Shown in pieces: positions 39,173 to 64,000 of a stretch of 64,000 nucleotides of DNA (position 1 is its first letter; the number at the start of each line of letters is the position of its first letter). The DNA lies in contig CAWKKR010000009.1 of the NCBI GenBank assembly GCA_963850305.1, positions 32,001 through 96,000 of the forward strand, written 5' to 3'. The stretch comes from an uncultured delta proteobacterium (GTDB lineage: Bacteria; Myxococcota_A; Polyangia; Polyangiales; Polyangiaceae). Position numbers and translations under genes: made by a program. A model generated the notes under the pieces. That model searched no databases and was not told the origin of the DNA. It saw nothing but the letters and a program-made list of their open reading frames with translations.

Positions 39173-39691
39173 ACGGGGTGCGCTCGTTCGCCTGAAGGTT
39201 CGGCCGCAACGTCTGTAGACGAAGAACGGGGGCGTTTTCTATTTCGGTTCGGTCGAGTGCGTTCCGGACAGCACGGGCCGTCCCCACCCCCCAGGCCGAG
39301 CCCGTAGTCGTGGGCTCCGCTCCCGAGGCCGACCCCTCCTCACTGCGTGTGCCGCGGGAGCGTGTGCGACGCGGTGGCGACCGCAACGAATCTCGCTCCG
39401 CCGAGTAGGACTTGGACACCCCCTCGGCCCGATGCAGCGCGCGTCGGTCGCTGACCGCGTAGCGTGCGGAAGGCACAAATGGCGGTCATGGACCCAAAGA
39501 ATCTCGCGAATACCATGGGTTGCGCCTTCGCGGAACGTACTTTCCGGCCACCGTGGGCAGGTGATACGTTCACCGTCATGCTGAGTTCGGGGCGTTCGGA
39601 GTGATTTAGCGGGCAACGTGCACCGACCGTGAGCGTCGAGTCGAAGCTCTTCGGAAGCGCTCAATTACGAATTTCGGGGTCACAACTGTAA

Positions 39692-51389: not shown

Positions 51390-51688
51390 GCGCGGCGACG
51401 ACCCCTTGCGGAGCGGCGGTCCGGCAAAACCGACGAACGTCTCGAGCAGCTTGAGCTGTGGTGAGCGGAGAACCGCGCCGCGCACGCTCCCGAGGCACAC
51501 GCAGTGAGGAGGGGGTCGGCCTCGGGGAGCGGAGCTCGCGTCTTCGAGCTCGGCCTAAGGGGGGTGGGGGCGGCCTGGCGCTACCGCGAGCGTAGCGCAC
51601 GAAGAAACGCTGCGCCGATCGCTTTGGAGGACGACACGCGGGCCCAACATTTCGGGCGTTGAGCGCGCGTGCGCCTCGACAGGGTTGC

Positions 51689-52144: not shown

Positions 52145-52270
52145 GCCCGCGGAGAGGCTTCGTATCTCCGATGAAAAGCCCGCGGAGAGGCTTCATATCT
52201 CCGACAAAGCCCGCGGAGAGGCTTCGTATCTCCGACAAAGCCCGCGGAGAGGCTTCGTATCTCCGACAAA
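52145..52270 (+). repeat. Four tandem 31-33 bp repeats GCCCGCGGAGAGGCTTCGTATCTCCGACAAA
   Basis: Units at 52145, 52178, 52209, 52240; internal inverted repeat CGGAGA..TCTCCG. Confidence 0.95.
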
Positions 52271-52309
52271 GCCCCCGGTCGGCTTCGGTCGAACGGGGGC
52301 GCACTTTTG

Positions 52310-52465
52310 CGTGCTGGAGTTGCGAGTTGCGATCGTCGTGAGCTCGAGCTCGGCGAGCGTCGTCCGCGTGCGCGGTCGCCCCGGACCGCGGCGTTCCGAG
52401 CCGTCATACTTCGCAGCCACCAGGTTCCGGTACCAGCCGAGCAGAGTGTCCGGGCGAGCAAGTGC
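52310..52465 (-). pseudogene. Fragment of an integrase-core (rve-type) transposase
   Basis: LARPDTLLGWYRNLVAAKYDGSERRGPGRPRT. Confidence 0.6.
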
Positions 52466-52469
52466 TCCA

Positions 52470-52555
52470 AACCCCGTCCCCGTCGTCGACCCGCCGCTCC
52501 CCGCCGTCCACGACGGCCCCGGGCCGTCAAGGACGGGGATTTTCGGTACATTTTG
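52470..52555 (+). repeat. Terminal repeat R, copy A (inner side shortened)
   Basis: AACCCCGTCC..GACGGCCCCGGGCCGTCAAGGACGGGGATTTTCGGTACATTTTG. Confidence 0.95.
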
Positions 52556-54017
52556 AGCGCGCGTGCAGAGTCGCGAGGAGGAGCATCTGGGAGCCGCGCG
52601 CGGGTTCGGTCGATCTCGGGAGGGGTCGCTTCAAGAACGCGATGCAGAGCCGCGGGTGTGCGCGCAGTGTCGCCTCCAGATCCACGAGCGACCCGGGCAG
52701 GGTCTTGCTGGGCGGCAGAGGACGTTGGACGAGCATCGGCCGGACGTCGTTCGACAGCAGGCTGCAGACTCTGGCAGGCGGCACTCGCGCGGCGAGAGCC
52801 TGCCAGCGTGGCGCGGAGAATTCTCTGGGTAGTCGCGCCGACGGGAAGTGGGCATTCGCTGCCGACGCGAAGCGGCACAGGCAGACCAGGCCGAGAATGA
52901 CGATGGGCCCCGTGAACGCGAGTTGCCATTTCGTCCGGGCGCGGCCGACGACGCGGCTGGCGAGGACGGCTCCCAACGCCCACGTCGGCACCCAGAAGCG
53001 GACTTCGGTCAAAGGATTGAAGTCGCTGAACGTCGCTGCAACGACCATCGTCGCGACGTAACCCGCGAAGGTGAGGGCTATCAGGCGCACGTAGTTCGAG
53101 CGCCAGATGCGCATGCCGACGCACAGCACGCAGAAGCACAGGACCGGCACGGCCACCTCGAGGCGTTCGGTCCATGACGGTCGTCCGGGTAAGAGCCCGG
53201 CATCTGCGAGCCACTGCACGGAACCCGCGGCCGCGCGCACGATGTTCTCGTGAAATCCGTTGTAGTGCACGCTCCGATCCCCCATGAGAGATCCGGAGAC
53301 GAGTCGATTTCTGACGAGAAGCGGTACGGTGACGGCTGCGAGCGCCGCAAACAGCGGCACGAACTGCGTCAGGCGGGTCCAGAGGGAGCCGCGGCGCGCC
53401 GCGAGGAGCCCGAGGACGACTCCCAGAATGACGCCCTGGCCGGCGTAGCGGAACAGAAACGTCACGCCGAGCGCGACGCCACAGGCCACCTGAAGCCGGG
53501 GTCGTCTCTCTCGGACGAGTGCCGTTGCTAGCAGGACCGAGCAGAGCGTCGCGGCGGCAAAGGGCAAGTCGCTCAGCACGGCGTCGACCGTGACGAGCGT
53601 GCTCGGCTGAAGCGCGACGCAGAGCGTGAACAACGTGACGACGGGCCACGCCTTTGCCCCAGCAACGCGGCACCCGAGGCCGAAGAGAGCGGCAACGAAG
53701 ACGACATACGCGATGCCGAGGACCACTGGCGCCCCTGATAGCGGACTTGCCCCGAACCATACAGGCACGGCCAGGCACGCCGAGAAGGCTGGGGGCCACG
53801 GCGTGATGGGGTCGAAGGCACTCGACCCGACGAGCGCGCCGCGGGAGGTGACATACCCCTCGAAAGCTGCCAGGTATCGAGCGCCATCGATGTACGTCGC
53901 GCTGTCCCACGAAGCGCTTCCGCCCGGCCCCCACAGCCACGCGACCCAGATCGCGACGGCGATCGTTCCTACACCCGCCGCCGCAGCCCTCATTCGGTTC
54001 GATGATGCACGAGTCAC
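52527..54017 (-). pseudogene. Multi-TM GT-C/PMT-like membrane protein, 3'-truncated by repeat R
   Basis: SWDSATYIDGA, WPPAFS, VLSDLPF, FRYAG; final residues KCTENPRP* are encoded by R. Confidence 0.7.
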
Positions 54018-54021
54018 GGGA

Positions 54022-54456
54022 TCAAAGAGGTGCGGATTCCTGGCCTCCCAAGAGATGCGTCATCGCAGAAAGTAGCGGATCGAGCGCGGTTGGCTTGGTC
54101 AAAACGGCGTCGAAAGGGCCGCGTTCGCGCTCGCCGAGCGGGCGACCCGTGAGCGCGATGAGCCCAGTCGCGTGCGTGTCTTCTTGGGCCCGGAGCGCAT
54201 GAGCGACGTCGATGCCGGACATGCCCGGTAGCGTCACGTCGAGGAGAATGAGCCGAGGATGTCGTGAGCGCGCGAGCCGCATCGCCTCTTCTCCGGTCTC
54301 CGCCGTCATCACGTCCCAGCCCCCGAGGCGGAGAAGCTCCGACAGGGCTTCGCGAGAATCCGCGTCGTCGTCCACGATCAGTACGCCGACGCCTCCGCCT
54401 GCGTTCTTCTCGAAGCGCGACTCATCCACGACGCGCTCCTGGCCCATGCCCGACAC
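54022..54456 (-). CDS. Single-domain response regulator
   Basis: VLIVDDD, ILLDVTLPGMSG, IALTG, LTKP. Confidence 0.9.
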   Translation of the reverse strand: MSGMGQERVVDESRFEKNAGGGVGVLIVDDDADSREALSELLRLGGWDVMTAETGEEAMRLARSRHPRLILLDVTLPGMSGIDVAHALRAQEDTHATGLIALTGRPLGERERGPFDAVLTKPTALDPLLSAMTHLLGGQESAPL

Positions 54457-54841
54457 CGGTACCTGCGTTCAAGGGACGCTCCACGAAACACTCATTAGGA
54501 GATGATGACGGCAGGTCAACTCGCACCTCATGGTCATGAGCAGCGTGCATCGTGCGCGAGGACGCAGGAATTGCGTCCAGCTTGGGCGCTCTTGGACATG
54601 ATGCGATCATTCGATCACGGGCCTGGTCAAGCAACCGGGCCGCGCACCGGGAACTGCGCGCACCCTCGTGACGCCGTGGAGACATCAAAGATCTTCCTAC
54701 GACCATCGTGGTGGTCACGTGCGAGGCTCCATTTTCGGTGAGGCACTTTGCCACAAATACTGGAGCCGTGCTCACGCACGTCCCGAGGGCCTGAACTTTT
54801 CCGATGTAGATGCGTCTGGATCGCCTATCATTGCCCTTCGA

Positions 54842-54948
54842 CGCCGGAGACCAGGGCGACCAACCCCGTCCTCGTCGTCGACCCGCCGCTCCCCGCCGTC
54901 CCACGACGGCCCCGGGCCGTCAAGGACGGGGATTTTCGGTACATTTTG
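54842..54948 (+). repeat. Terminal repeat R, copy B (107 bp)
   Basis: CGCCGGAGACCAGGGCGACCAACCCC..CGGTACATTTTG. Confidence 0.95.
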
Positions 54949-55030
54949 ACCAATTCCAGGTGGCACCTACGCCTTTACGTTCGAGTCTGCCGCCGCCTTG
55001 ATGGCGTTGCTCGCCGCGGCCGAGCGGGTC

Positions 55031-55146
<116 letters not shown>

Positions 55147-55485
55147 CTGAGGGATGAGGACGGCCGAGCCGCCTCGGCTGGCACAGGCCCGGACGAGCGC
55201 GTCCAGTGCGGCCTCGGTCCGTCGAAGGAGATCGACCTGAACGGGGCGGCCGCGGTCGACCCCTGAGTAGCGCCGTTTCGGCGTCTTTCCGCTCCCAGAG
55301 CGCCGCTTTGGCGAGACCCCTGTCGCGGCATCCGGCGGCTCGGAGGTGGAGACGATCACGCGTAAGCGCGGCGTTTCGATCGCGCTCGGCGCGATCGTTT
55401 CTGGGCCCGAACGCACGACGACGTAGCCCCCGGGTGAGCGGGAGCCACGTCGTCACGGCAAGCTGAGCGGCGGCGTGTTCGGAGG

Positions 55486-56238
55486 CTATTCCACCTCCTG
55501 GTCGGAGCGGCGGGACTTGCCGGTGATGCGGACGAGGAGGCCCTTGTGGACGAGGCGGTCGGCGATGGCGGAGGCGGCGGCGCTGTTGTGGAACAGCGTG
55601 CCCCAGTCCTTGAAAGGGAGATTGGTGGTGACGATGGTGGAGACGCGCTGGTAGCGCTTGTTGAATACCTGGTAGAGGAGGTCGGCGCCGCGGGCGTCGA
55701 AGCTCAGGTAGCCGAGCTCGTCGATCAGGAGAAGGTCGGGTGTGGACCAGGCAGCGAGGCGACGATGCAGGGTATTTCGGGCCTGCGCGGCGACGAGGTC
55801 GTTGACGAGATCGGCGGCGAGGACGAAGCGGACGCGGTGCCCGCGGAGGCAAGCGAGCTGGCCGATGGCGTTGGCGAGGTGGGTCTTGCCGACGCCGCTG
55901 GGGCCGAGGAAGACGCAGTTGGCCTTGTCGCGAATGAATTCGAGGGAAGCGGCGCGGATGACGATGTCGCGATCGATGGTCTTGGGGTAGTCGAAGTCGT
56001 AGGTGTCGACGGTGGTGAGGGGGAAGATGGCGGAGCGCTTCAGGGCGGCGCGAGCGCGGCCTTCGAGCTGCACGCGGAGCTGCTCTCTCATCAGGTGGTC
56101 GAGGAGAGCGGTGGGCGACTCGTTGCGGGTGATGGCCTTCTGGGACGCCGCGTCGAGCTCGCCCGCGGCGTGGTCGAGGCCGAGGGTGCGGAGCACGTCC
56201 TCGAGGGACAGGGAGGTGGCGACGTCATCCGTCGCCAT
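55486..56238 (-). CDS. istB: IS21 helper AAA+ ATPase IstB
   Basis: FLGPSGVGKTHLA, LLIDELGY, TTNLPF, DRLVH, GKSRR (alternative start 56307). Confidence 0.95.
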   Translation of the reverse strand: MATDDVATSLSLEDVLRTLGLDHAAGELDAASQKAITRNESPTALLDHLMREQLRVQLEGRARAALKRSAIFPLTTVDTYDFDYPKTIDRDIVIRAASLEFIRDKANCVFLGPSGVGKTHLANAIGQLACLRGHRVRFVLAADLVNDLVAAQARNTLHRRLAAWSTPDLLLIDELGYLSFDARGADLLYQVFNKRYQRVSTIVTTNLPFKDWGTLFHNSAAASAIADRLVHKGLLVRITGKSRRSDQEVE

Positions 56239-57766
56239 CGGAGGGATCGGAGTCGGGGGGGTCTCGGTCGGGGATTTCGAATGTTTCGGGGGTTTCGAAG
56301 AGGGCATCGTAGGTCTCCAGTGGATGGGGCTCGACGATGATCTCGTCGGCCGTGGTGTTGCCGGTGACGATGGGCTCGGGGGGCTCGCCGAGGCCGCGAG
56401 CGAAGCGGCTCTGGTCGATGAGGGCGCGGACGTTGCGGACGCCGAAGGTGCGAGCGGCGAGCGCGCGCTTCATGCCCTCGGCGACGTCGGCCTCGCCGTA
56501 GAGCACGACGAGGCGCTGGAGCTTCTGGATCTCGCCTTCGAGATCGATGCGCCGCCGTGCGATCTCCTGGAGGTAGACGCGGGATTCCGGCGAGAGAGCG
56601 GCGAGGCGATCGCGCCGACGTGGGGCGTGCGCCGCGGGGCGCTTTTCGAGCATCGCATCGATGTGAGCCCGGTCTTCGATAGGTTGCCGACGCCCCCAGC
56701 AGCGCGCGTGCTCGGCGACGACGGCGCCGCCGGCGACGATGCGCACGGTGGTGTCGTCGGCGCGAAGATGAACGCTCTGCCCAACGAGGCGATGGGGAAC
56801 GGAGTAGGTGTTGGTGTCGAGGTGGACGCGGGCCTCCTTCGAGACGACCATCGGCAGGACGAGGTCGGTGTCGAAGGTGTGCTCCGGCAGGGGGCGGAGA
56901 CGGGGCCGCTCGAGGAGGAGGCGCTCCAGCGGGCGCTCCCGCGTGGTGCCGTGAATGCGGGCGTTGGCGGTGTGCTCGGCCCAGGCGGAGACCTGGGCGC
57001 GCAGATCGGCGAGAGACGAGAAGGTCCGGCCGTAGAAGAAGGAGTGGCGGATGTATTTGATGGCGGCCTCGACGCCGCCCTTGAACTCCGGGTAGCGAAC
57101 GGGGGCTGCGACGGGCTCGAAGAGGTAGTGGCCGGCGAAGCCGAGGAACGCCGGGTTGAACTGCACGGTGGAGCCGACGTGGTGCAGGACGACGCTCTTG
57201 AGATTGTCGTAGACGATGCGCTTCGGGACGCCGCCGAAGAACGCGAGGGCGCGCTGGTGCATGCGCAGGAACGTGTCCATGCGCATGTCGAGGGAGAAGT
57301 CGACGTAGATGGCGCGCGACCAGCGCATCACCATCGCGAACGCGGAGAGGGGGCGCTGTGTGTTACCGACACGCCAGTGCCCGAACGAGCCCCAGTCGAC
57401 CTGGGCCTGCTCGCCCGGCTCGGTCTCGATGCGGAGGTAGGCTTTGCGGGCGCGCGGGGCTCGGACCTTGGCGACGTAGCGGCGGAGCTGCGCGATCCCT
57501 CCTTTGAACCCCGCGCCCTGGAGCTCCATGAAGAGGCGGACGGCGGTGAGATCCGGGTGCTCGGTGAGGCGCCGGATGATGTGCTCCCGGAATGGATCGA
57601 GCTCGGAGGGGGCCGGAGGACGATGCTCGGTCACGCCATCCGGATCGCGGATGGCGCGACGGACGACGGAGTGATGGACGCCGAAGCGCCGGGCGGCGGT
57701 CTCGATCTTCCACCCCTCCCGGAGGACGAGCCGTCGCATCGCGGCGCGGATCTCCGGGGTGATCAT
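56225..57766 (-). CDS. istA: IS21 transposase IstA
   Basis: ETEPGEQAQVDW, FFGGVP..YDNLKSVV, KGGVE, RIHGTT, NTYSVP. Confidence 0.95.
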   Translation of the reverse strand: MITPEIRAAMRRLVLREGWKIETAARRFGVHHSVVRRAIRDPDGVTEHRPPAPSELDPFREHIIRRLTEHPDLTAVRLFMELQGAGFKGGIAQLRRYVAKVRAPRARKAYLRIETEPGEQAQVDWGSFGHWRVGNTQRPLSAFAMVMRWSRAIYVDFSLDMRMDTFLRMHQRALAFFGGVPKRIVYDNLKSVVLHHVGSTVQFNPAFLGFAGHYLFEPVAAPVRYPEFKGGVEAAIKYIRHSFFYGRTFSSLADLRAQVSAWAEHTANARIHGTTRERPLERLLLERPRLRPLPEHTFDTDLVLPMVVSKEARVHLDTNTYSVPHRLVGQSVHLRADDTTVRIVAGGAVVAEHARCWGRRQPIEDRAHIDAMLEKRPAAHAPRRRDRLAALSPESRVYLQEIARRRIDLEGEIQKLQRLVVLYGEADVAEGMKRALAARTFGVRNVRALIDQSRFARGLGEPPEPIVTGNTTADEIIVEPHPLETYDALFETPETFEIPDRDPPDSDPSDGDG

Positions 57767-58146
57767 CGCTGGCCCGTCGCCGCGAACGAGATGAGCTGCC
57801 GGGCGTCGGTGAAGGAGCCCATGCCTTCCAGGAACCGGTCGTGTTTGCGGCAGGGCGGGACGGCGACCCACTCGACGCGCACGGCGCGCTCCGGTGCGTC
57901 ACCGAGGAGTAGGGCCCAGTGCTCGGGGCGGCGGCGCACGTCCCCGGCATCCGCATCGAGCACAGCGTGCAACGGCAGGCCGTACCAGAGGGAGAGCGCC
58001 TCGAGCAGCATCATCAGGGCTCGCCCGTCGGCGGGCTCGGGCGGCAGTCGGGCTTTCAGCGACGTGCCGGCAGAGGGCTCCGAGAGCAGGAGCCGGATCT
58101 CCGAGCCCTCGGGCTCGATCGACAACCACAGCGGGAGGGACGACAT
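57763..58146 (-). CDS. IS21-associated hypothetical protein
   Basis: Stop overlaps the istA ATG (ATGA); LKARLP..RAL..LLEALSLW. Confidence 0.65.
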   Translation of the reverse strand: MSSLPLWLSIEPEGSEIRLLLSEPSAGTSLKARLPPEPADGRALMMLLEALSLWYGLPLHAVLDADAGDVRRRPEHWALLLGDAPERAVRVEWVAVPPCRKHDRFLEGMGSFTDARQLISFAATGQR

Positions 58147-58483
58147 CGATGTGAATCTCCAGCGCGGTCGTCGGTGCCGCGGGCGTCGTGCCCGCAGCCG
58201 TGACCGGCACCTCGACGGGTACAGGTGGGCACTCGGCCGCGGAATGTTGTGGAGTCACGCCCCGGGCGGCTTTCTTCCGGTCCCGGTATTCCTGCTGCCG
58301 ATCCCGATGGTTTCCCGGGCCCCACTCCGTCTTCCGTTGCTTCTTGCTCGCCGTCCGCCACTGCGCCCGGCGCGCGACCCGTGCGCATTTCGGCGAGCAG
58401 TACCGGCATCGCCGGTCGCACCGTCGGCAGAGCAAGAAGTCGCCGCCGCAGATGGGGCAGAGGCGCTCCGCGAGCTCGTCCAG
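57899..58483 (-). CDS. IS21-associated zinc-finger protein (start uncertain)
   Basis: CPICGGDFLLCRRCDRRCRYCSPKC, basic helix with HRDRQQEYR. Confidence 0.6.
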   Translation of the reverse strand: MDELAERLCPICGGDFLLCRRCDRRCRYCSPKCARVARRAQWRTASKKQRKTEWGPGNHRDRQQEYRDRKKAARGVTPQHSAAECPPVPVEVPVTAAGTTPAAPTTALEIHIDVVPPAVVVDRARGLGDPAPALGALCRHVAESPTAARARRRASPDDAARGALPLVRPAVARCARCGCRGRAPPPRALGPTPR

Positions 58484-58729
58484 GTGGGCACGGCGACCCC
58501 CGCGAAGTGGACAGCCCAGCCTCGCCCATGCGATGCACCGCGCCGCAGCGGACGGCCTATTCCGTCCTGCCGGACGGCTCGGAGCGGGAACTCTGGGCCG
58601 TCCCCCTTTCGAGGGCGCGCCGAGCTACGCGACGCCCGTCAGGCTGGCCAAGAAACTCGAGCCCGCGCTACGAGTCGAACCCCGCGCTCGCCGTGATCGG
58701 GAACCCGCGCTTCGGCGTGATCGTCTCCA

Positions 58730-59413
58730 CTCAGTCTCTTGCCTGGACACCAGGCCCACGAGATCCCTGTCGTCATCCACGACAAGGAACGAGACCAGAA
58801 GATCGCTGGTCGGCTCGTAGTGATGCGTCTCCCGGAGGCGCAAGCCGAGAAGGCTCGCGCTCGACTCGTTCGCGAGCGAGGCACGCGCGTCTCGGACCTC
58901 GACCGAGAAGCGGCAAGCTATGTTGTCTTGTTCACCACGGTGCCGAAGTCCCGACTCGACGCCGAGCGTTGCCTCGCGCTCTACCGCCTGCGCTGGCAAG
59001 TCGAGTTGCTCTTCAAACGATGGAAGTCTCTGTGCGGCCTCGATCGCCTGCCGAACTACCTCGACGAGACGATACACGCCTGGCTCTACGGAAAAGTGCT
59101 TCTCGCACTTCTGATGCAGCGGATGGCGGCCTCCGCGCTTTCCCCCCGGAGCCGTCGAATTCGTCTCGACGCCGACGACCCGCCGTGGACGCACCAACCG
59201 TGGAAGCTGACCTCGCTGCTGTGGGCGGCGCTCATCCGCTCGCTGCTCCCCCTCACGCTGCATGACCTGCTCGCTCGCCTCCCCGGGATCCTCGAACGCC
59301 TCGACCACGCAGACGAGGAAGGAAACTGGCGAGCTGACACCGACCGCTCCCGTCCACGTCAGATCCACGACTTCCGCTCATGCCTGCCGGCGCGGCTCCG
59401 ACGTGCGGCCTGA
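58730..59413 (+). pseudogene. IS4-family transposase C-terminal half, 5' part lost at the IS21 end
   Basis: YRLRWQVELLFKRWKS (YREK signature). Confidence 0.85.
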
Positions 59414-59428
59414 GGTGATAACGGCGAT

Positions 59429-59522
59429 GGCGACCAACCCCGTCCTCGTCGTCGACCCGCCGCTCCCCGCCGTCCCACGACGGCCCCGGGCCGTCAAGGA
59501 CGGGGATTTTCGGTACATTTTG
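59429..59522 (+). repeat. Terminal repeat R, copy C
   Basis: GGCGACCAACCCC..CGGTACATTTTG, starting 16 nt after the IS4 stop. Confidence 0.95.
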
Positions 59523-59525
59523 GTT

Positions 59526-59554
59526 GGGGTGTCCACGAAAGCGGGGGATCATCA
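59526..59554 (+). mobile_element. Isolated IS3-like right-end remnant
   Basis: GGGGTGTCCACGAAAGCGGGGGATCATCA resembles IS3-family IRR. Confidence 0.45.
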
Positions 59555-59613
59555 GGGCGGTGCCGCTGGTAGCCGCCAGCACGCTGGCCGTCGAGAGGAA
59601 CGGCGGGAGCTAC

Positions 59614-60144
59614 TCATCCCTTGTCACATCCTGGATCGAGCAGCGTTGCTAGGGGGGCGCAAAAAGCGCTTAACTGCGGCGCGCCGCAGGGCAGAGTCGC
59701 CGTCGCGCAAGCCATGATCTCGCTACGGTGGGCCACGTAAAAATCCAACATACCCTTGCAACAGCTCGTGATCTGCACGTCCGGCTCGTTCTCCTCGCAC
59801 GCAGCACTCGAAGGAGCCCCAATGCATGCATTCACCTGTCCACAGAACACATCGTACAAGGACTGTGCGAGTCCGCTCATTTCGTCGAAGGTGACCGCCA
59901 CCGAAGGTGAGCCAGGTCCCGCACTCAACGTCCGGCCGTCAATCCCCGCTTGGGTCGCGCAAAGGGTGCCGGCACCGACGCAAGATCCGCCTGGCGTACA
60001 TTTTGCCGAACTTCCATAGACCGCACAGTCCGTGTCCTTCGCGCAGGGGTACTCATTCGTCTTGCTCCCAGAGCACGACGCAATGACCGCAAGTACGCCT
60101 ACGGCAATACTTGCGCGCACGGCGCTTATCAAAAAAACGCGCAA
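59614..60144 (-). CDS. Cys-rich lipoprotein
   Basis: IASC lipobox, many Cys. Confidence 0.7.
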   Translation of the reverse strand: MRVFLISAVRASIAVGVLAVIASCSGSKTNEYPCAKDTDCAVYGSSAKCTPGGSCVGAGTLCATQAGIDGRTLSAGPGSPSVAVTFDEMSGLAQSLYDVFCGQVNACIGAPSSAACEENEPDVQITSCCKGMLDFYVAHRSEIMACATATLPCGAPQLSAFCAPLATLLDPGCDKG

Positions 60145-61073
60145 CGTTCCCCCTGTTTGCAGTTTTGGAAACTCATTAGCAATGACCCATCAGCGAGCGG
60201 CTGCGCCGTGGCCGCCGACGACGAGAGGGCCGGAGCTGGTTGCGTGGTCGCCTGCACCGACCCATCAGGCACCGCCTGCGTGCTCGACGCGAACACCGGC
60301 CTCACCATGCCTGGATGACCATACGCGGCCTTCATGGCGGCTGGCACAAGCCGACTGATCTTTGCTCCGCTACCAGAAGAAAGCGACAGACTTACCCCGT
60401 GAACAAGCATGCTGCCTGTTGTGAGGCACTTGCCACTCGATGGCAAGCACGCCGATATCGGGTTGCCCGCAGCATCCTCAAAGATATGGCTCGAAGAACT
60501 TGCATCGAAATTTACCGGTTGCGAGAATAGCAAAGTTACTTCGTCCTGTTTGGACGGATCATTGGACTGACTTACGCTTTCAATATACACGATGTCTCCA
60601 GTGTAGACACTTAACGAAAATCCAGCACATCCGAGAATTGCAACGCTGTCGGGCACCGAAGAAGCCACTACGGAGTACCAGGCCCCCTGCAGCAGCGGCG
60701 CTACAGAAGCGATATCAATTTGCGTGGCACCGTTGTTACCGAACGCACCACTAACCTGCACCGGCACCGCCTTTCCTGAACTATCAGAGACCGATACTGC
60801 AGTCGCCACTCGGGCCGCAACATCGCTCGCCGACATCAATCCGTTCGCCAACAACTGGACATGAAGGTTTACGCCGAGCCCGCTCTGTACCAAATACGTC
60901 GGCTGATATAAATATACCATGTATGGAAGAATCGCCGACGCCGCTTGACTGCTCGGTGATGCCGCGAGAATTGCTGGCTGTCCAGACCGCGGCGACGATT
61001 GCCCGGTGCCGCACGCCGGGCCGCCAGAAATAGCTAAACAAGCACAGACGGCCAATTTCCAAAACTTTCGCAT
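60129..61073 (-). CDS. Putative lipoprotein, beta-rich/Ig-like
   Basis: MRKFWKLAVCACLAISGGPAC leader; RBS-like AAAGGGGA. Confidence 0.65.
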   Translation of the reverse strand: MRKFWKLAVCACLAISGGPACGTGQSSPRSGQPAILAASPSSQAASAILPYMVYLYQPTYLVQSGLGVNLHVQLLANGLMSASDVAARVATAVSVSDSSGKAVPVQVSGAFGNNGATQIDIASVAPLLQGAWYSVVASSVPDSVAILGCAGFSLSVYTGDIVYIESVSQSNDPSKQDEVTLLFSQPVNFDASSSSHIFEDAAGNPISACLPSSGKCLTTGSMLVHGVSLSLSSGSGAKISRLVPAAMKAAYGHPGMVRPVFASSTQAVPDGSVQATTQPAPALSSSAATAQPLADGSLLMSFQNCKQGERCAFF

Positions 61074-61093
61074 GTTCGTCCCCTTTGTGTCAT

Positions 61094-62608
61094 TCACGGT
61101 GTGACAGTAACCCCGTTTGCATAAAACTGGGCGCTTGTACGCAACGAATCCCATTGATCAGGCAGCACCCCAGCAGGCGGCCGTGAATACGGCACTAAAC
61201 CAGCCGCAGCAAGGAGACTCCAATTGTCCTGTCCGGCGGCACAGCGACCGGCCGGCGGCACTCCGCCCGCAACCGGATCCAAGCAATGATCAGTCGCAGT
61301 ACAAAGGGTATGCGAATCGTATGGGCCGTCCATGATGGTATGGCCGCACCATGGTTCATTGCCGTTAATGTATTCATCACCAAACGACAGCATGCTATGC
61401 CCAAACTCATGAGCAATGTAGAAGGAAATGCTATCCACATTACTGTATTGCGTGCAACCCCTGGCAGGATCAGGAATGTAAGTTCGGTAACCCGGAATGC
61501 TCTTGAAGCCACAACCGTCCACGGGCTTTAATACGAAATCACAGCCGGCCACCGGACCACAGTACGGATAAAGACTAGGATCCCCGCTACTGGAGCACGT
61601 ACCGGTTGGAACGATTTTATGAGTCCAAGTCATCGGCCAAATACCGCCGTTAGTATATTGAGCGACGCGCCCGGAGAGCTCCTTAAGGAACTGAACATAA
61701 GGAGCCCAGTAGGGCGCTGTTGTACTTAATGGTATCTCACCGCAGATTGTATAAGCGGTCTTGGTGGTAGTCGGGTACGCCGACACGTGAAGCACATAGT
61801 GTGCTGCGCCTACGTAAGAATGTATCCCAATATAATATGTCCCGTTCCCTTGCGACGGCAGGTTTATGAATGCTCCTCCGCCAGCAATAGTCCCAGTAGA
61901 ATTCCCAGAAAAGTCAATGTAGTCGTAAGAAGTCTGGTCCGGGAACCGGTTGGTCTTGCTGACGTAAAGATCTAGATCGGGAGACGTGGTCGGGGATGCA
62001 AGAACCTCAACGGAAATCGCGACTCTTTCGTTTGGAGAATGCGAAACATTGAAGTAGTGAGTGTCCCCGGTACCTAACAGGACACCCTCGATTCTATAAT
62101 TGTTACCTATGTTCCAGCTAACCGGTGGGGGAATGGTAGCCGAGCACACCAGTGCCAGTGAGTTAACTGTAGGCGTTGAGGCTTCGTTGCCTGAAGCGTC
62201 AGTCTTCCATAAAAACTGGATGTTGTTAGGATATTGGGTAGTTGAATCTCCAATAAGAAGCGCGCCGGCAAAGCCGTTTGGGTTGTTTCCCGTGTACATG
62301 TAGCCCTCGTAGGCACTGGCTATCGACAAAAAGTCGCTACCATTTAGCCAGACGTTGTTCAGGCTGGGGACAACTATCCCAACGGTTGGCGAGAAGAACA
62401 CAGACCAATATGAGTACTCATTGTTGTTATAAAAACCAGGAGCTTGTGAATAGCGCTCGAACTCGGCGGTGCCGGTGTTTACTGGCAGGACCGTCGGGCT
62501 GTAAACGTTCGTCGAGCAGCTCTGATAGCTAAACGCCGCCCTCGCGGTAGTTAGCGGCAAGAACGTTGCCGTACACATCACAGCAGCTACGCACGTGGAG
62601 TGACGCAT
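61094..62608 (-). CDS. Secreted zinc metalloprotease-like protein with PPC domain
   Basis: Signal peptide (ARA-A), DLDLYV..GTYYIGIHSY PPC motif, IAHEFGHSMLSFGDEY HEXXH motif. Confidence 0.75.
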   Translation of the reverse strand: MRHSTCVAAVMCTATFLPLTTARAAFSYQSCSTNVYSPTVLPVNTGTAEFERYSQAPGFYNNNEYSYWSVFFSPTVGIVVPSLNNVWLNGSDFLSIASAYEGYMYTGNNPNGFAGALLIGDSTTQYPNNIQFLWKTDASGNEASTPTVNSLALVCSATIPPPVSWNIGNNYRIEGVLLGTGDTHYFNVSHSPNERVAISVEVLASPTTSPDLDLYVSKTNRFPDQTSYDYIDFSGNSTGTIAGGGAFINLPSQGNGTYYIGIHSYVGAAHYVLHVSAYPTTTKTAYTICGEIPLSTTAPYWAPYVQFLKELSGRVAQYTNGGIWPMTWTHKIVPTGTCSSSGDPSLYPYCGPVAGCDFVLKPVDGCGFKSIPGYRTYIPDPARGCTQYSNVDSISFYIAHEFGHSMLSFGDEYINGNEPWCGHTIMDGPYDSHTLCTATDHCLDPVAGGVPPAGRCAAGQDNWSLLAAAGLVPYSRPPAGVLPDQWDSLRTSAQFYANGVTVTP

Positions 62609-62874
62609 ACCATGGTTCTCCTCATTTAGTGGCTATACCCCATTGTCGAAGAAACATTATCGCGTCGGCACGAGTGATGTCAACGGAGAAGTGATGTCAA
62701 CGGAGAAATGACCATGGGGCCGGTCACAACCAATGCCCCTGCAAACGTTCTCGGTCTGCGCGTACCATTCGCGGGCCTATGAGTAACAAATCCGGTACTT
62801 GTGCTGTGTCAGGATGCCCGGAAGCGGCACGTAGGGTGGCCAGAGATCCGGTACTTTCCGGGTAACCTCTTGCC

Positions 62875-63343
62875 CAAAATGTACCGGAAATCCCCGTCCC
62901 TGACGGCCCGGGGCCGTCCGTGGACGGGTGGGGATCGCCGTCGGAGCGCGAGCACCGACGTGATCCGCGGGCCGATTTGCTGATGGGATGAGCCGAATGG
63001 AGGGGTCCCCGACGTCGAAGGGTTGCGACACACCAAGGACGAAAGGAAGCCCGATGGACATCGTGACCCGAACTGCGTTTCTCGCCAAGCCCGAAGTGAA
63101 GGAAGTCGTGTGCGATCTGCGACGACTGGTTCGAAGTGCGCTTCCGCACGGCAATTTTGCAGAACGTGAGGAGGCAGCGCTCACGATCTTCGACGAGGCA
63201 ATGCGTTCGGTGCTCGAAGAGGAGCTTCAACACGTCGCCGGAGACCAGGGCGACCAACCCCGTCCTCGTCGTCGACCCGCCGCTCCCCCGCCGTCCCACG
63301 ACGGCCCCGGGCCGTCAAGGACGGGGATTTTCGGTACATTTTG
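62875..63343 (+). mobile_element. 469-bp miniature element bounded by inverted copies of R (copy D 62875-~62935 inverted; copy E 63236-63343)
   Basis: CAAAATGTACCGGAAATCCCCGTCCCTGACGGCCCGGGGCCGTC matches the reverse complement of the right end at 42/44; internal ORF start at 63054 resembles an ISKra4-like transposase N-terminus. Confidence 0.85.
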
Positions 63344-64000
63344 GAACGAGCAGATGCTCGGGGCGTTGGGTGATCTCGGTCCCGCTCTTGGCATGACTGG
63401 AGAGCTCGGCGTAGGAGGACGCATCGCCCACCAGAATGCCGCCGAGGACCTTCTTCCGGTCGTCGCTGAGGACGAGCTTCTTGTAGATGCCGGTGGCGCC
63501 GTCGAAGAGACTGACGACTTTCGAGCCCGCGGTCACGCCGAACGCGTCTCCGAAGCTCGCGACGTCCACGCCGAGGAGCTTGAGCTTCGTGCTCATGTCG
63601 AACCCGGTGAACGCCCCGGCGTCGCTCGCGAGCTGGGCCGCGACGACCTCGGCCATGCGGTATCCGGGGGCCACCAGACCATACGTCCGGTTGGCGAGCG
63701 CCGCGCATTCACCGATGGCGAACACGTCGGGGTCCGTGGTCCGGCAACTCTCGTCGATCGCGATGCCGCCGCGGTCGCCGAGCGCGAGTCCGGAATGGCG
63801 CGCGAGCTCGTCGCGCGCACGGATCCCCGCCGAGAATACGACGATGTCCGCCGGGAGCTCGCCCTCGTCCTCGAACCGAACGGCGGAGACTCGCCCCTCG
63901 TCGTCCGCCAGGATCGATTGGGTCTTCGCGCTCGTGTGAACGACGATGCCGAGCGCCTCGATGCGGCTCCGGAGCACCGCGGCGCCCACGTCGTCCACCT
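63315..64000 (-). pseudogene. nirB: Nitrite reductase large subunit (NirB-like) N-terminal part, 3'-truncated by repeat R; 5' part outside the window
   Basis: VVFSAGIRARDELA, FAIGECA, YGLVAPGYRMA, DMSTKLKLLGVDVASFGD, YKKLV; ends KCTENPRP* from R before the Fe-S/siroheme domains. Confidence 0.85.

Follow-up and report, generated by a model that had tools for sequence, protein, structure and literature searches.

IS91, an insertion sequence (IS), is described as forming single-strand circles with joined ends and using tetranucleotide targets, with failures of termination mobilizing the adjacent DNA (PMC13181058). For IS801, ori-end miniatures of 229, 360 and 679 nt and capture of adjacent DNA in vivo are reported (PMC3189936), as are ori-anchored deletions (PMC6354349), and accounts of ISCR1 describe variable DNA on its oriIS side (PMC6218425; PMC13393415). 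Capture between two sequential oriIS copies is cited second-hand for ISCR28 (PMC12772301), and one-ended capture has been proposed for a catabolic cluster (PMC5737581). Here we analyze a 64,000-nt stretch of an uncultured delta proteobacterium (the window, G000:C9:32001-96000), in which copies of a short repeat, R, separate unrelated gene fragments. Judged from its sequence context, R is the terminus, on the oriIS side, of an IS91/ISCR-type HUH transposon, and one-ended rolling-circle capture probably yields units of R plus cargo that join R ends already present. Throughout, G000 is the source genome, C denotes a contig, belonging to G000 unless stated otherwise, and other G numbers are related genomes.

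The genome carries 28 copies of R, a module of 102 nt that is sharply bounded at both ends (an iterated profile search gave 29 matches, one of which is a palindromic self-overlap). The right, or inner, end is TG in 25 of the 28 copies and CG in the other 3, and the base that follows is a purine in 27 of 28, three ends having been set by hand within 1-2 nt. At the left end 20 of 28 copies fit a GAGRYCAGG-type pattern, 11 of them directly after CG. No rejoining of R flanks was seen, as the preliminary description of this DNA had noted: adjacent flank matches were found for 0 of 28 copies, with matches on both sides in only 8. All five window copies reported there, four co-oriented and one inverted, were recovered with refined boundaries, and a further co-oriented copy lies just beyond the window at C9:96984-97085. 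The stack reads as follows, X1 to X4 denoting the cargo.

52345-52453, minus strand: fragment of an integrase-core transposase gene (rve-type, a family label we presume from its translation), cut at the R1 ori end; 94.5% to C3:20483-20591 and C1:727366-727474, the donor reading CCG|G at the cut.
52454-52555, plus strand: R1, an ori module with a diverged ori end, found as a profile copy; it and its left block also occur at C5:10122-8284.
52556-54846: cargo X1, a 3'-truncated GT-C-like gene (52527-54017, minus) and a response regulator (54022-54456, minus), from domain matches.
54847-54948, plus strand: R2, a complete 102-nt module.
54949-55345, plus strand: cargo X2, the C-terminal part of a poly-Asp gene, for which the genome gave no donor.
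55346-58730, minus strand: IS21-family element (istB 55486-56307, istA 56309-57766) with Pfam matches IstB_IS21, Mu-transpos_C_2 and rve and with terminal inverted repeats.
58730-59429, plus strand: 3' part of an IS4-family element (NF033592) whose end cuts into R3; 99.9% to C9:105489-104789.
59430-59522, plus strand: R3, its left end removed by the IS4 element.
59523-62874, minus strand: cargo X3, three open reading frames of no known family, 55% GC; no donor in the genome.
62875-62925, minus strand: inverted, truncated R copy, cut by the left end of the ISKra4-like element.
62926-63240, plus strand: left end of an ISKra4-like element, cut at the R4 ori end; 100% to C8:1185989-1186303, where the donor runs on as CCG|A; NF033572 E 1.3e-42, below cut-off.
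63241-63343, plus strand: R4, a complete module of 103 nt.
63344-64000 and on to C9:96984, minus strand: cargo X4, the 5' half of nirB with upstream DNA, R at both ends; a 1641-bp match to C8.

R1 had been placed from 52470; the copy is real, but it is longer and has a diverged left end. R2 likewise stands, except that the first five nucleotides assigned to it (54842-54846) are flank; it runs from an ori end of GAGACCAGG to an inner TTTG. All five window copies do close in GTACATTTTG, although this shared terminus, previously termed outer, is the one that faces inward in the parent element. The KCTENPRP tail was seen again at the C-terminus of three open reading frames (52527-54017, 54920-55852 and 63315-63998, all minus), and the segments differ in base composition as stated (GC 0.659, 0.692, 0.552, 0.616 and 0.664). 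The inverted repeats said to make R structured exist, but folding is no better than that of shuffles (z -0.74), which leaves structure beyond one local hairpin, and R as a structured RNA or DNA, unsupported. Two partial forms occur elsewhere in the genome. At C2:113825 just the last 21 nt of R are fused to the integrase-core gene of R1 at a different site, and at C8:1533495-1533639 about 145 bp lie between two opposed R inner ends, resembling a miniature inverted-repeat transposable element (MITE-like derivative). The opposed ends raised the possibility of a DDE inverted repeat, which was rejected because every full context is HUH and the letters at the ends are variable.

Three Y2_Tnp genes are present in the genome (C2, C6 and C7), each reading toward an R copy 3' of its stop codon, with about 85 nt from the stop to the R right end. 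The C6 and C7 genes are open (577-aa core; C6:8700-10430) and the C2 gene is frameshifted near its end. Their product carries Y2_Tnp (PF04986, E 1.7e-25) and zinc-binding (PF14319, E 3.3e-16) domains, an HVH motif and an LLRY motif with one tyrosine, which we take to be the single-tyrosine arrangement of the ISCRs. The nearest named transposase is that of ISPps1 (34% over 95% of length); scores fall under both NCBIfam cut-offs (NF033538, 83.5 bits vs 125; NF052416, 334 vs 925), the best model being ISCR clade Ia, far below its cut-off. The three copies are homologous from the R left end, about 190 nt beyond the stop codon; on the far side their homology stops at different places (about 2.1 vs 2.6 kb). 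No R lies there, which led us to reject R as a terIS at that end, and a defined terIS upstream of the transposase, a trait of IS91 sensu stricto, was not found among the three copies.

The polarity of R follows from ISPps1. On pADP-1, the sequence common to its copies starts 190 nt beyond the stop codon, at a 9-nt end whose last letters are AGG. The R left end fits this outer-end pattern, as do the corresponding ends in G066, G145 and G181; because both position and pattern match, the R left end is taken as oriIS and the TTTG end as an internal site. In relatives from other genera the inner junction motif is found 50-90 nt after the stop codon, and its far side is conserved. This motif was at first considered as the true ori and was rejected after the comparisons with ISPps1, G066 and G181. 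About 80 nt inward from its ori end, ISPps1 of pADP-1 carries TTG|AGC, a motif similar to the module inner junction site. R is thus a terminus of a named family, which the preliminary description had not recognized. No intact enzyme lies in the window, as had been observed, all three transposase genes being elsewhere in the genome. At 12 kb past the last R there is a 5' remnant of the transposase (C9:109180-110079, 99.4% to the C2 copy), oriented to match, with IS and recombinase genes piled between it and the stack; the recombinase genes at C9:107-109 kb adjoin and truncate the remnant, not the stack.

A donor of X4 was found. From R4 to the next R, the nirB piece matches C8:1696494-1694854 over 1641 bp with 3 mismatches (99.8%), and at this locus, which is free of R, nirB is intact (an 892-codon frame), with donor junctions GCG|G and CCG|G. 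The nirB call itself is borne out by TIGR02374 (positions 180-402), and the poly-Asp gene is present as the C-terminal fragment listed above. The first 10 nt of X2 are identical to those after R in the transposase-linked copies. The GT-C-like gene has a weak match to NF047440 (E 2e-5, below cut-off), and no second copy of this gene was found in the genome. The right part of X1 is 76% identical to C8:299718-298932, where the sequence runs on as CCG|A at the R2 junction. An IS3-like end proposed after R3 was not confirmed, that sequence having no other match in the genome. Close donors for X1, X2, X3 and the segment after the last R were not found in the genome.

Donor junctions fall at CG|purine-type sites. 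Six of the seven ori junctions with a visible donor are at CCG, against a background of 0.037; two junctions made by the IS4 and ISKra4-like insertions were excluded from this count, and the seventh, C5:399087, aligns imperfectly. Target duplications, already reported as missing, are absent at all donor-resolved junctions. R1 and its 1.7-kb left flank (1841 bp, 98%) recur at C5:10122-8284 and the two loci diverge exactly after TTTG; R1 was therefore already there when new DNA became joined to its inner end. The R1 and R2 haplotypes are distinct up to their last 45 nt, so any exchange between them would have occurred at or near the inner end.

Transposase relatives were detected in 142 of 200 family genomes; a separate search for related loci with the transposase gave no match. 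At the DNA level, R itself gave only weak, chance-level matches in 5 of 40 relatives, and 300 genomes of the order contained no match to the transposase-linked region. Since its sequence is lineage-specific, the module had to be located in relatives through the transposase. The ori side was examined in eight genomes with the long transposase type, chosen for their long contigs (G097 among them was uninformative, as was G087: truncated gene, contig end). In five of the seven informative genomes (G145, G066, G181, G199 and G190), extra co-oriented modules ending at an inner TG lie beside the related transposase, with up to 14 inner ends per stack. Across seven arrays in five other genomes, a purine follows the inner end in 49 of 49 cases and 47 of 49 modules are co-oriented, kin genomes being non-independent samples. 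Stacks end at a transposase in G000:C2 (4 modules), in G145:C4 (11 modules) and three times in G066, and in G182 four co-oriented modules run to the contig end. Two pieces of cargo bounded by modules in G066 have R-free donors there, one of 340 bp with 100% identity and one of 292 bp with 98%, and a 3.3-kb piece in G145 is 92% identical to an R-free native locus of a congener. Junction letters in G066 fit CG|purine less well. That genome also holds an exact module-module tandem, which is only suggestive of single-strand circular intermediates.

The stack-bearing enzymes fall in one 23-row clade (support 100/97), together with ISPps1, on a long and unsure branch, and with stackless members. Outside it lies the shorter IS91-type element of G126, whose copies are ordinary, 1.8 kb long and unstacked; at least eight of them share one orientation within 150 kb (G126:C2:1-156000), and several have the same read-through DNA past the ter end.

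Modules of several relatives contain a core that we take to be dif-like. At G066:C3 about 5221390-5223820 (L058:6390-8820) this core is interrupted by a 2.3-kb element that encodes a phage-integrase-family protein and carries a second IS91-type gene; the element is repeated several times in the stacks of that genome. The core, and the exact placement of an integrase-bearing element within it, would suit a tyrosine recombinase, either host XerCD or element-encoded, building the array at a site in R in the manner of an integron, with the HUH enzyme merely supplying circles. Such an origin is nonetheless very improbable: window R has no dif-like core, cargo junctions fall at module ends and not at the core, and the cargo consists of random gene fragments, not cassettes. 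A recombinase-built array had also been raised in the preliminary description; it is possible for the stacking step, but the genome has no R-linked recombinase.

We return to one-ended capture by the HUH transposase. The directly observed features that frame this scheme are two fixed junction ends, linkage to an HUH gene, a junction motif without duplications, intact donors and co-oriented stacks. The enzyme would nick one strand at both R ends and at look-alike CG|purine sites elsewhere. In a one-ended event the R inner end would then be joined to one host site and the R ori end to another, 0.3-5 kb from the first; the product would be a single-stranded unit of R plus cargo, and the donor would stay intact. 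Units would be added at resident R ends through strand exchange made by the transposase or through recombination within R, and the outcome would be a co-oriented stack of random fragments separated by R, which later end-driven deletions, inversions and unrelated IS insertions would erode. We infer the stacking step, for which the transposase, RecA or Xer are all possible as adding agent, and the window stack is best explained as such an eroded array. The earlier inference of iterative one-ended capture of kilobase-sized DNA without target duplications is thereby retained, whereas its analogy with Pack-MULE or ISEcp1 is not; a DDE identity was rejected because the linked enzyme is HUH, R is asymmetric and the junctions lack duplications.

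A wider proposal, which we advance tentatively and with some doubt, is that in a clade of long IS91/ISCR-like transposases the ori end became a reusable two-ended module whose inner site is the attachment point. The transposase would copy random host or foreign DNA between modules and accrete the units beside its own gene, producing integron-like arrays by HUH single-strand chemistry without a recombinase. If true, such transposase-directed accretion could also explain the variable DNA on the oriIS side of ISCR elements.

Several observations weigh against one-ended capture and stacking. R shows no unusual structure, donors within the same genome are missing for most of the cargo, and G168 and G172 have no stack. 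No simple insertion of R with rejoinable flanks was found among the 28 copies, 8 of them informative, so that the assumed first step is unseen; an isolated copy in G145 was uninformative on this point. Identity between the window R subfamily and the R copies at the three transposases is only 78-82%, and R neighbors less than 12 kb apart in the source genome are co-oriented in only 7 of 12 pairs. The five inverted pairs are compatible with the same element acting with no dedicated stacking, mini-R and full elements inserting independently in an IS-rich island while end-driven adjacent deletions and recombination leave R at the seams. Most IS801 fragments are indeed ascribed to reorganization in published accounts, and ori-anchored deletions are demonstrated there (PMC3189936; PMC6354349); ISPps1 leaves ori-anchored stubs of many lengths, one cargo piece in G066 has three different right ends and two left ends, and the window region is crowded with other IS. 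We nevertheless consider this history unlikely, since deletion scars alone cannot duplicate a distant locus yet leave it intact and R-free, as at nirB and the two G066 pieces, and since independent insertions are difficult to reconcile both with runs of 10-14 modules that nearly all point one way and stop at a transposase and with the failure to find a simple insertion.

Reads also count against the proposed capture: in three runs the share of words was 0.05-0.07, so that no run contains the window, and no contig assembled from them bridges a junction; one contig has R beside a different left flank and was not counted as support. The stack could on that account be an assembly artefact over a collapsed 100-bp repeat, but there is very little chance of this, since donor loci without R offer no repeat for mis-joining, the junctions fall on one motif, the nirB copy differs from the native gene at three positions, and the same layout occurs in independently assembled genomes of 3-4 contigs (G066 and G145). 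Finally, no ISCR-type element had been shown to transpose as of 2018, according to one account (PMC6218425).

Recruitment of resistance and catabolic genes is attributed to ISCR-type elements. Many capture events are preserved in the stacks, with junctions precise to the base and with several of the donors still intact. With a defined substrate of 100-175 nt, an apparently intact 577-aa enzyme and a junction rule (CG or TG, then a purine), ori-side capture is directly testable. The stacks also show a route for duplicating and shuffling gene fragments in these bacteria.

Other features of the window can be noted briefly. The IS21-family element is a later insertion unrelated to R, and two extra small open reading frames upstream of istA (57763-58435) have no Pfam match. 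The three open reading frames of X3 (59614-62608; 176, 341 and 504 aa) belong to no Pfam family, the two longer ones also to no NCBIfam family, and by eye all three resemble secreted proteins or lipoproteins. Left of the integrase-core fragment, within the 1.8-kb block common to C5, is a 31-bp tandem repeat of 4.3 copies (52145-52278), and an inverted pair of 43-nt repeats lies 12 kb apart at 39282-39375 and 51472-51567.

Compared with described systems, the parent element shares with IS91/ISCR elements the Y2_Tnp and zinc domains, an oriIS end downstream of the transposase, the lack of terminal inverted repeats and of target duplication, and a short target motif. Integrons and IS26 translocatable-unit arrays also place co-oriented repeats between acquired DNA with the enzyme gene at one end, and they employ a tyrosine recombinase or a DDE enzyme, integron cargo being whole-gene cassettes. 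Unlike an integron, the stacks described here end at HUH genes and hold random fragments whose ends cut genes. Helitrons are HUH rolling-circle elements that gather host gene fragments by missing or replacing an end, and have a eukaryotic RepHel enzyme with a helicase; the chemistry and the captured host gene fragments are alike, but Helitron cargo lies inside the element and here it lies between modules.

ISPps1/ISCR8 has the same outer-end pattern and, about 80 nt further inward, a similar inner motif. Its extra ori pieces in six plasmid stretches are 39, about 39, 60, 130, 349 and 798 nt or full length, unlike the modules here, and in those six stretches no ori piece stops at the inner motif and no mini defined by it was found. 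A close likeness is to the IS801 minis, which are likewise short, non-autonomous, ori-anchored pieces of an HUH rolling-circle family that end at an internal tetranucleotide, lack target duplication, capture adjacent DNA by one-ended events and serve as recombination sites (PMC3189936). Unlike R, these minis were trapped as simple insertions, and their captured DNA lies beyond the ter end of the full element (PMC3189936). No description of fixed-length iterated stacks was found in the literature searched, to which the primary ISCR8 and ISCR28 accounts, the 2006 ISCR review, other subscription papers and supplements, any of which could hold precedent, did not belong. Miniature ori-end derivatives and adjacent capture are already known for IS801, and fixed-length iterated stacking appears to be new. 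R differs in being a fixed module that is nearly always a seam, with cargo between modules on the ori-distal side and stacks up to 14 deep, and we regard these stacks as a variation on IS91/ISCR one-ended capture, not a new class.

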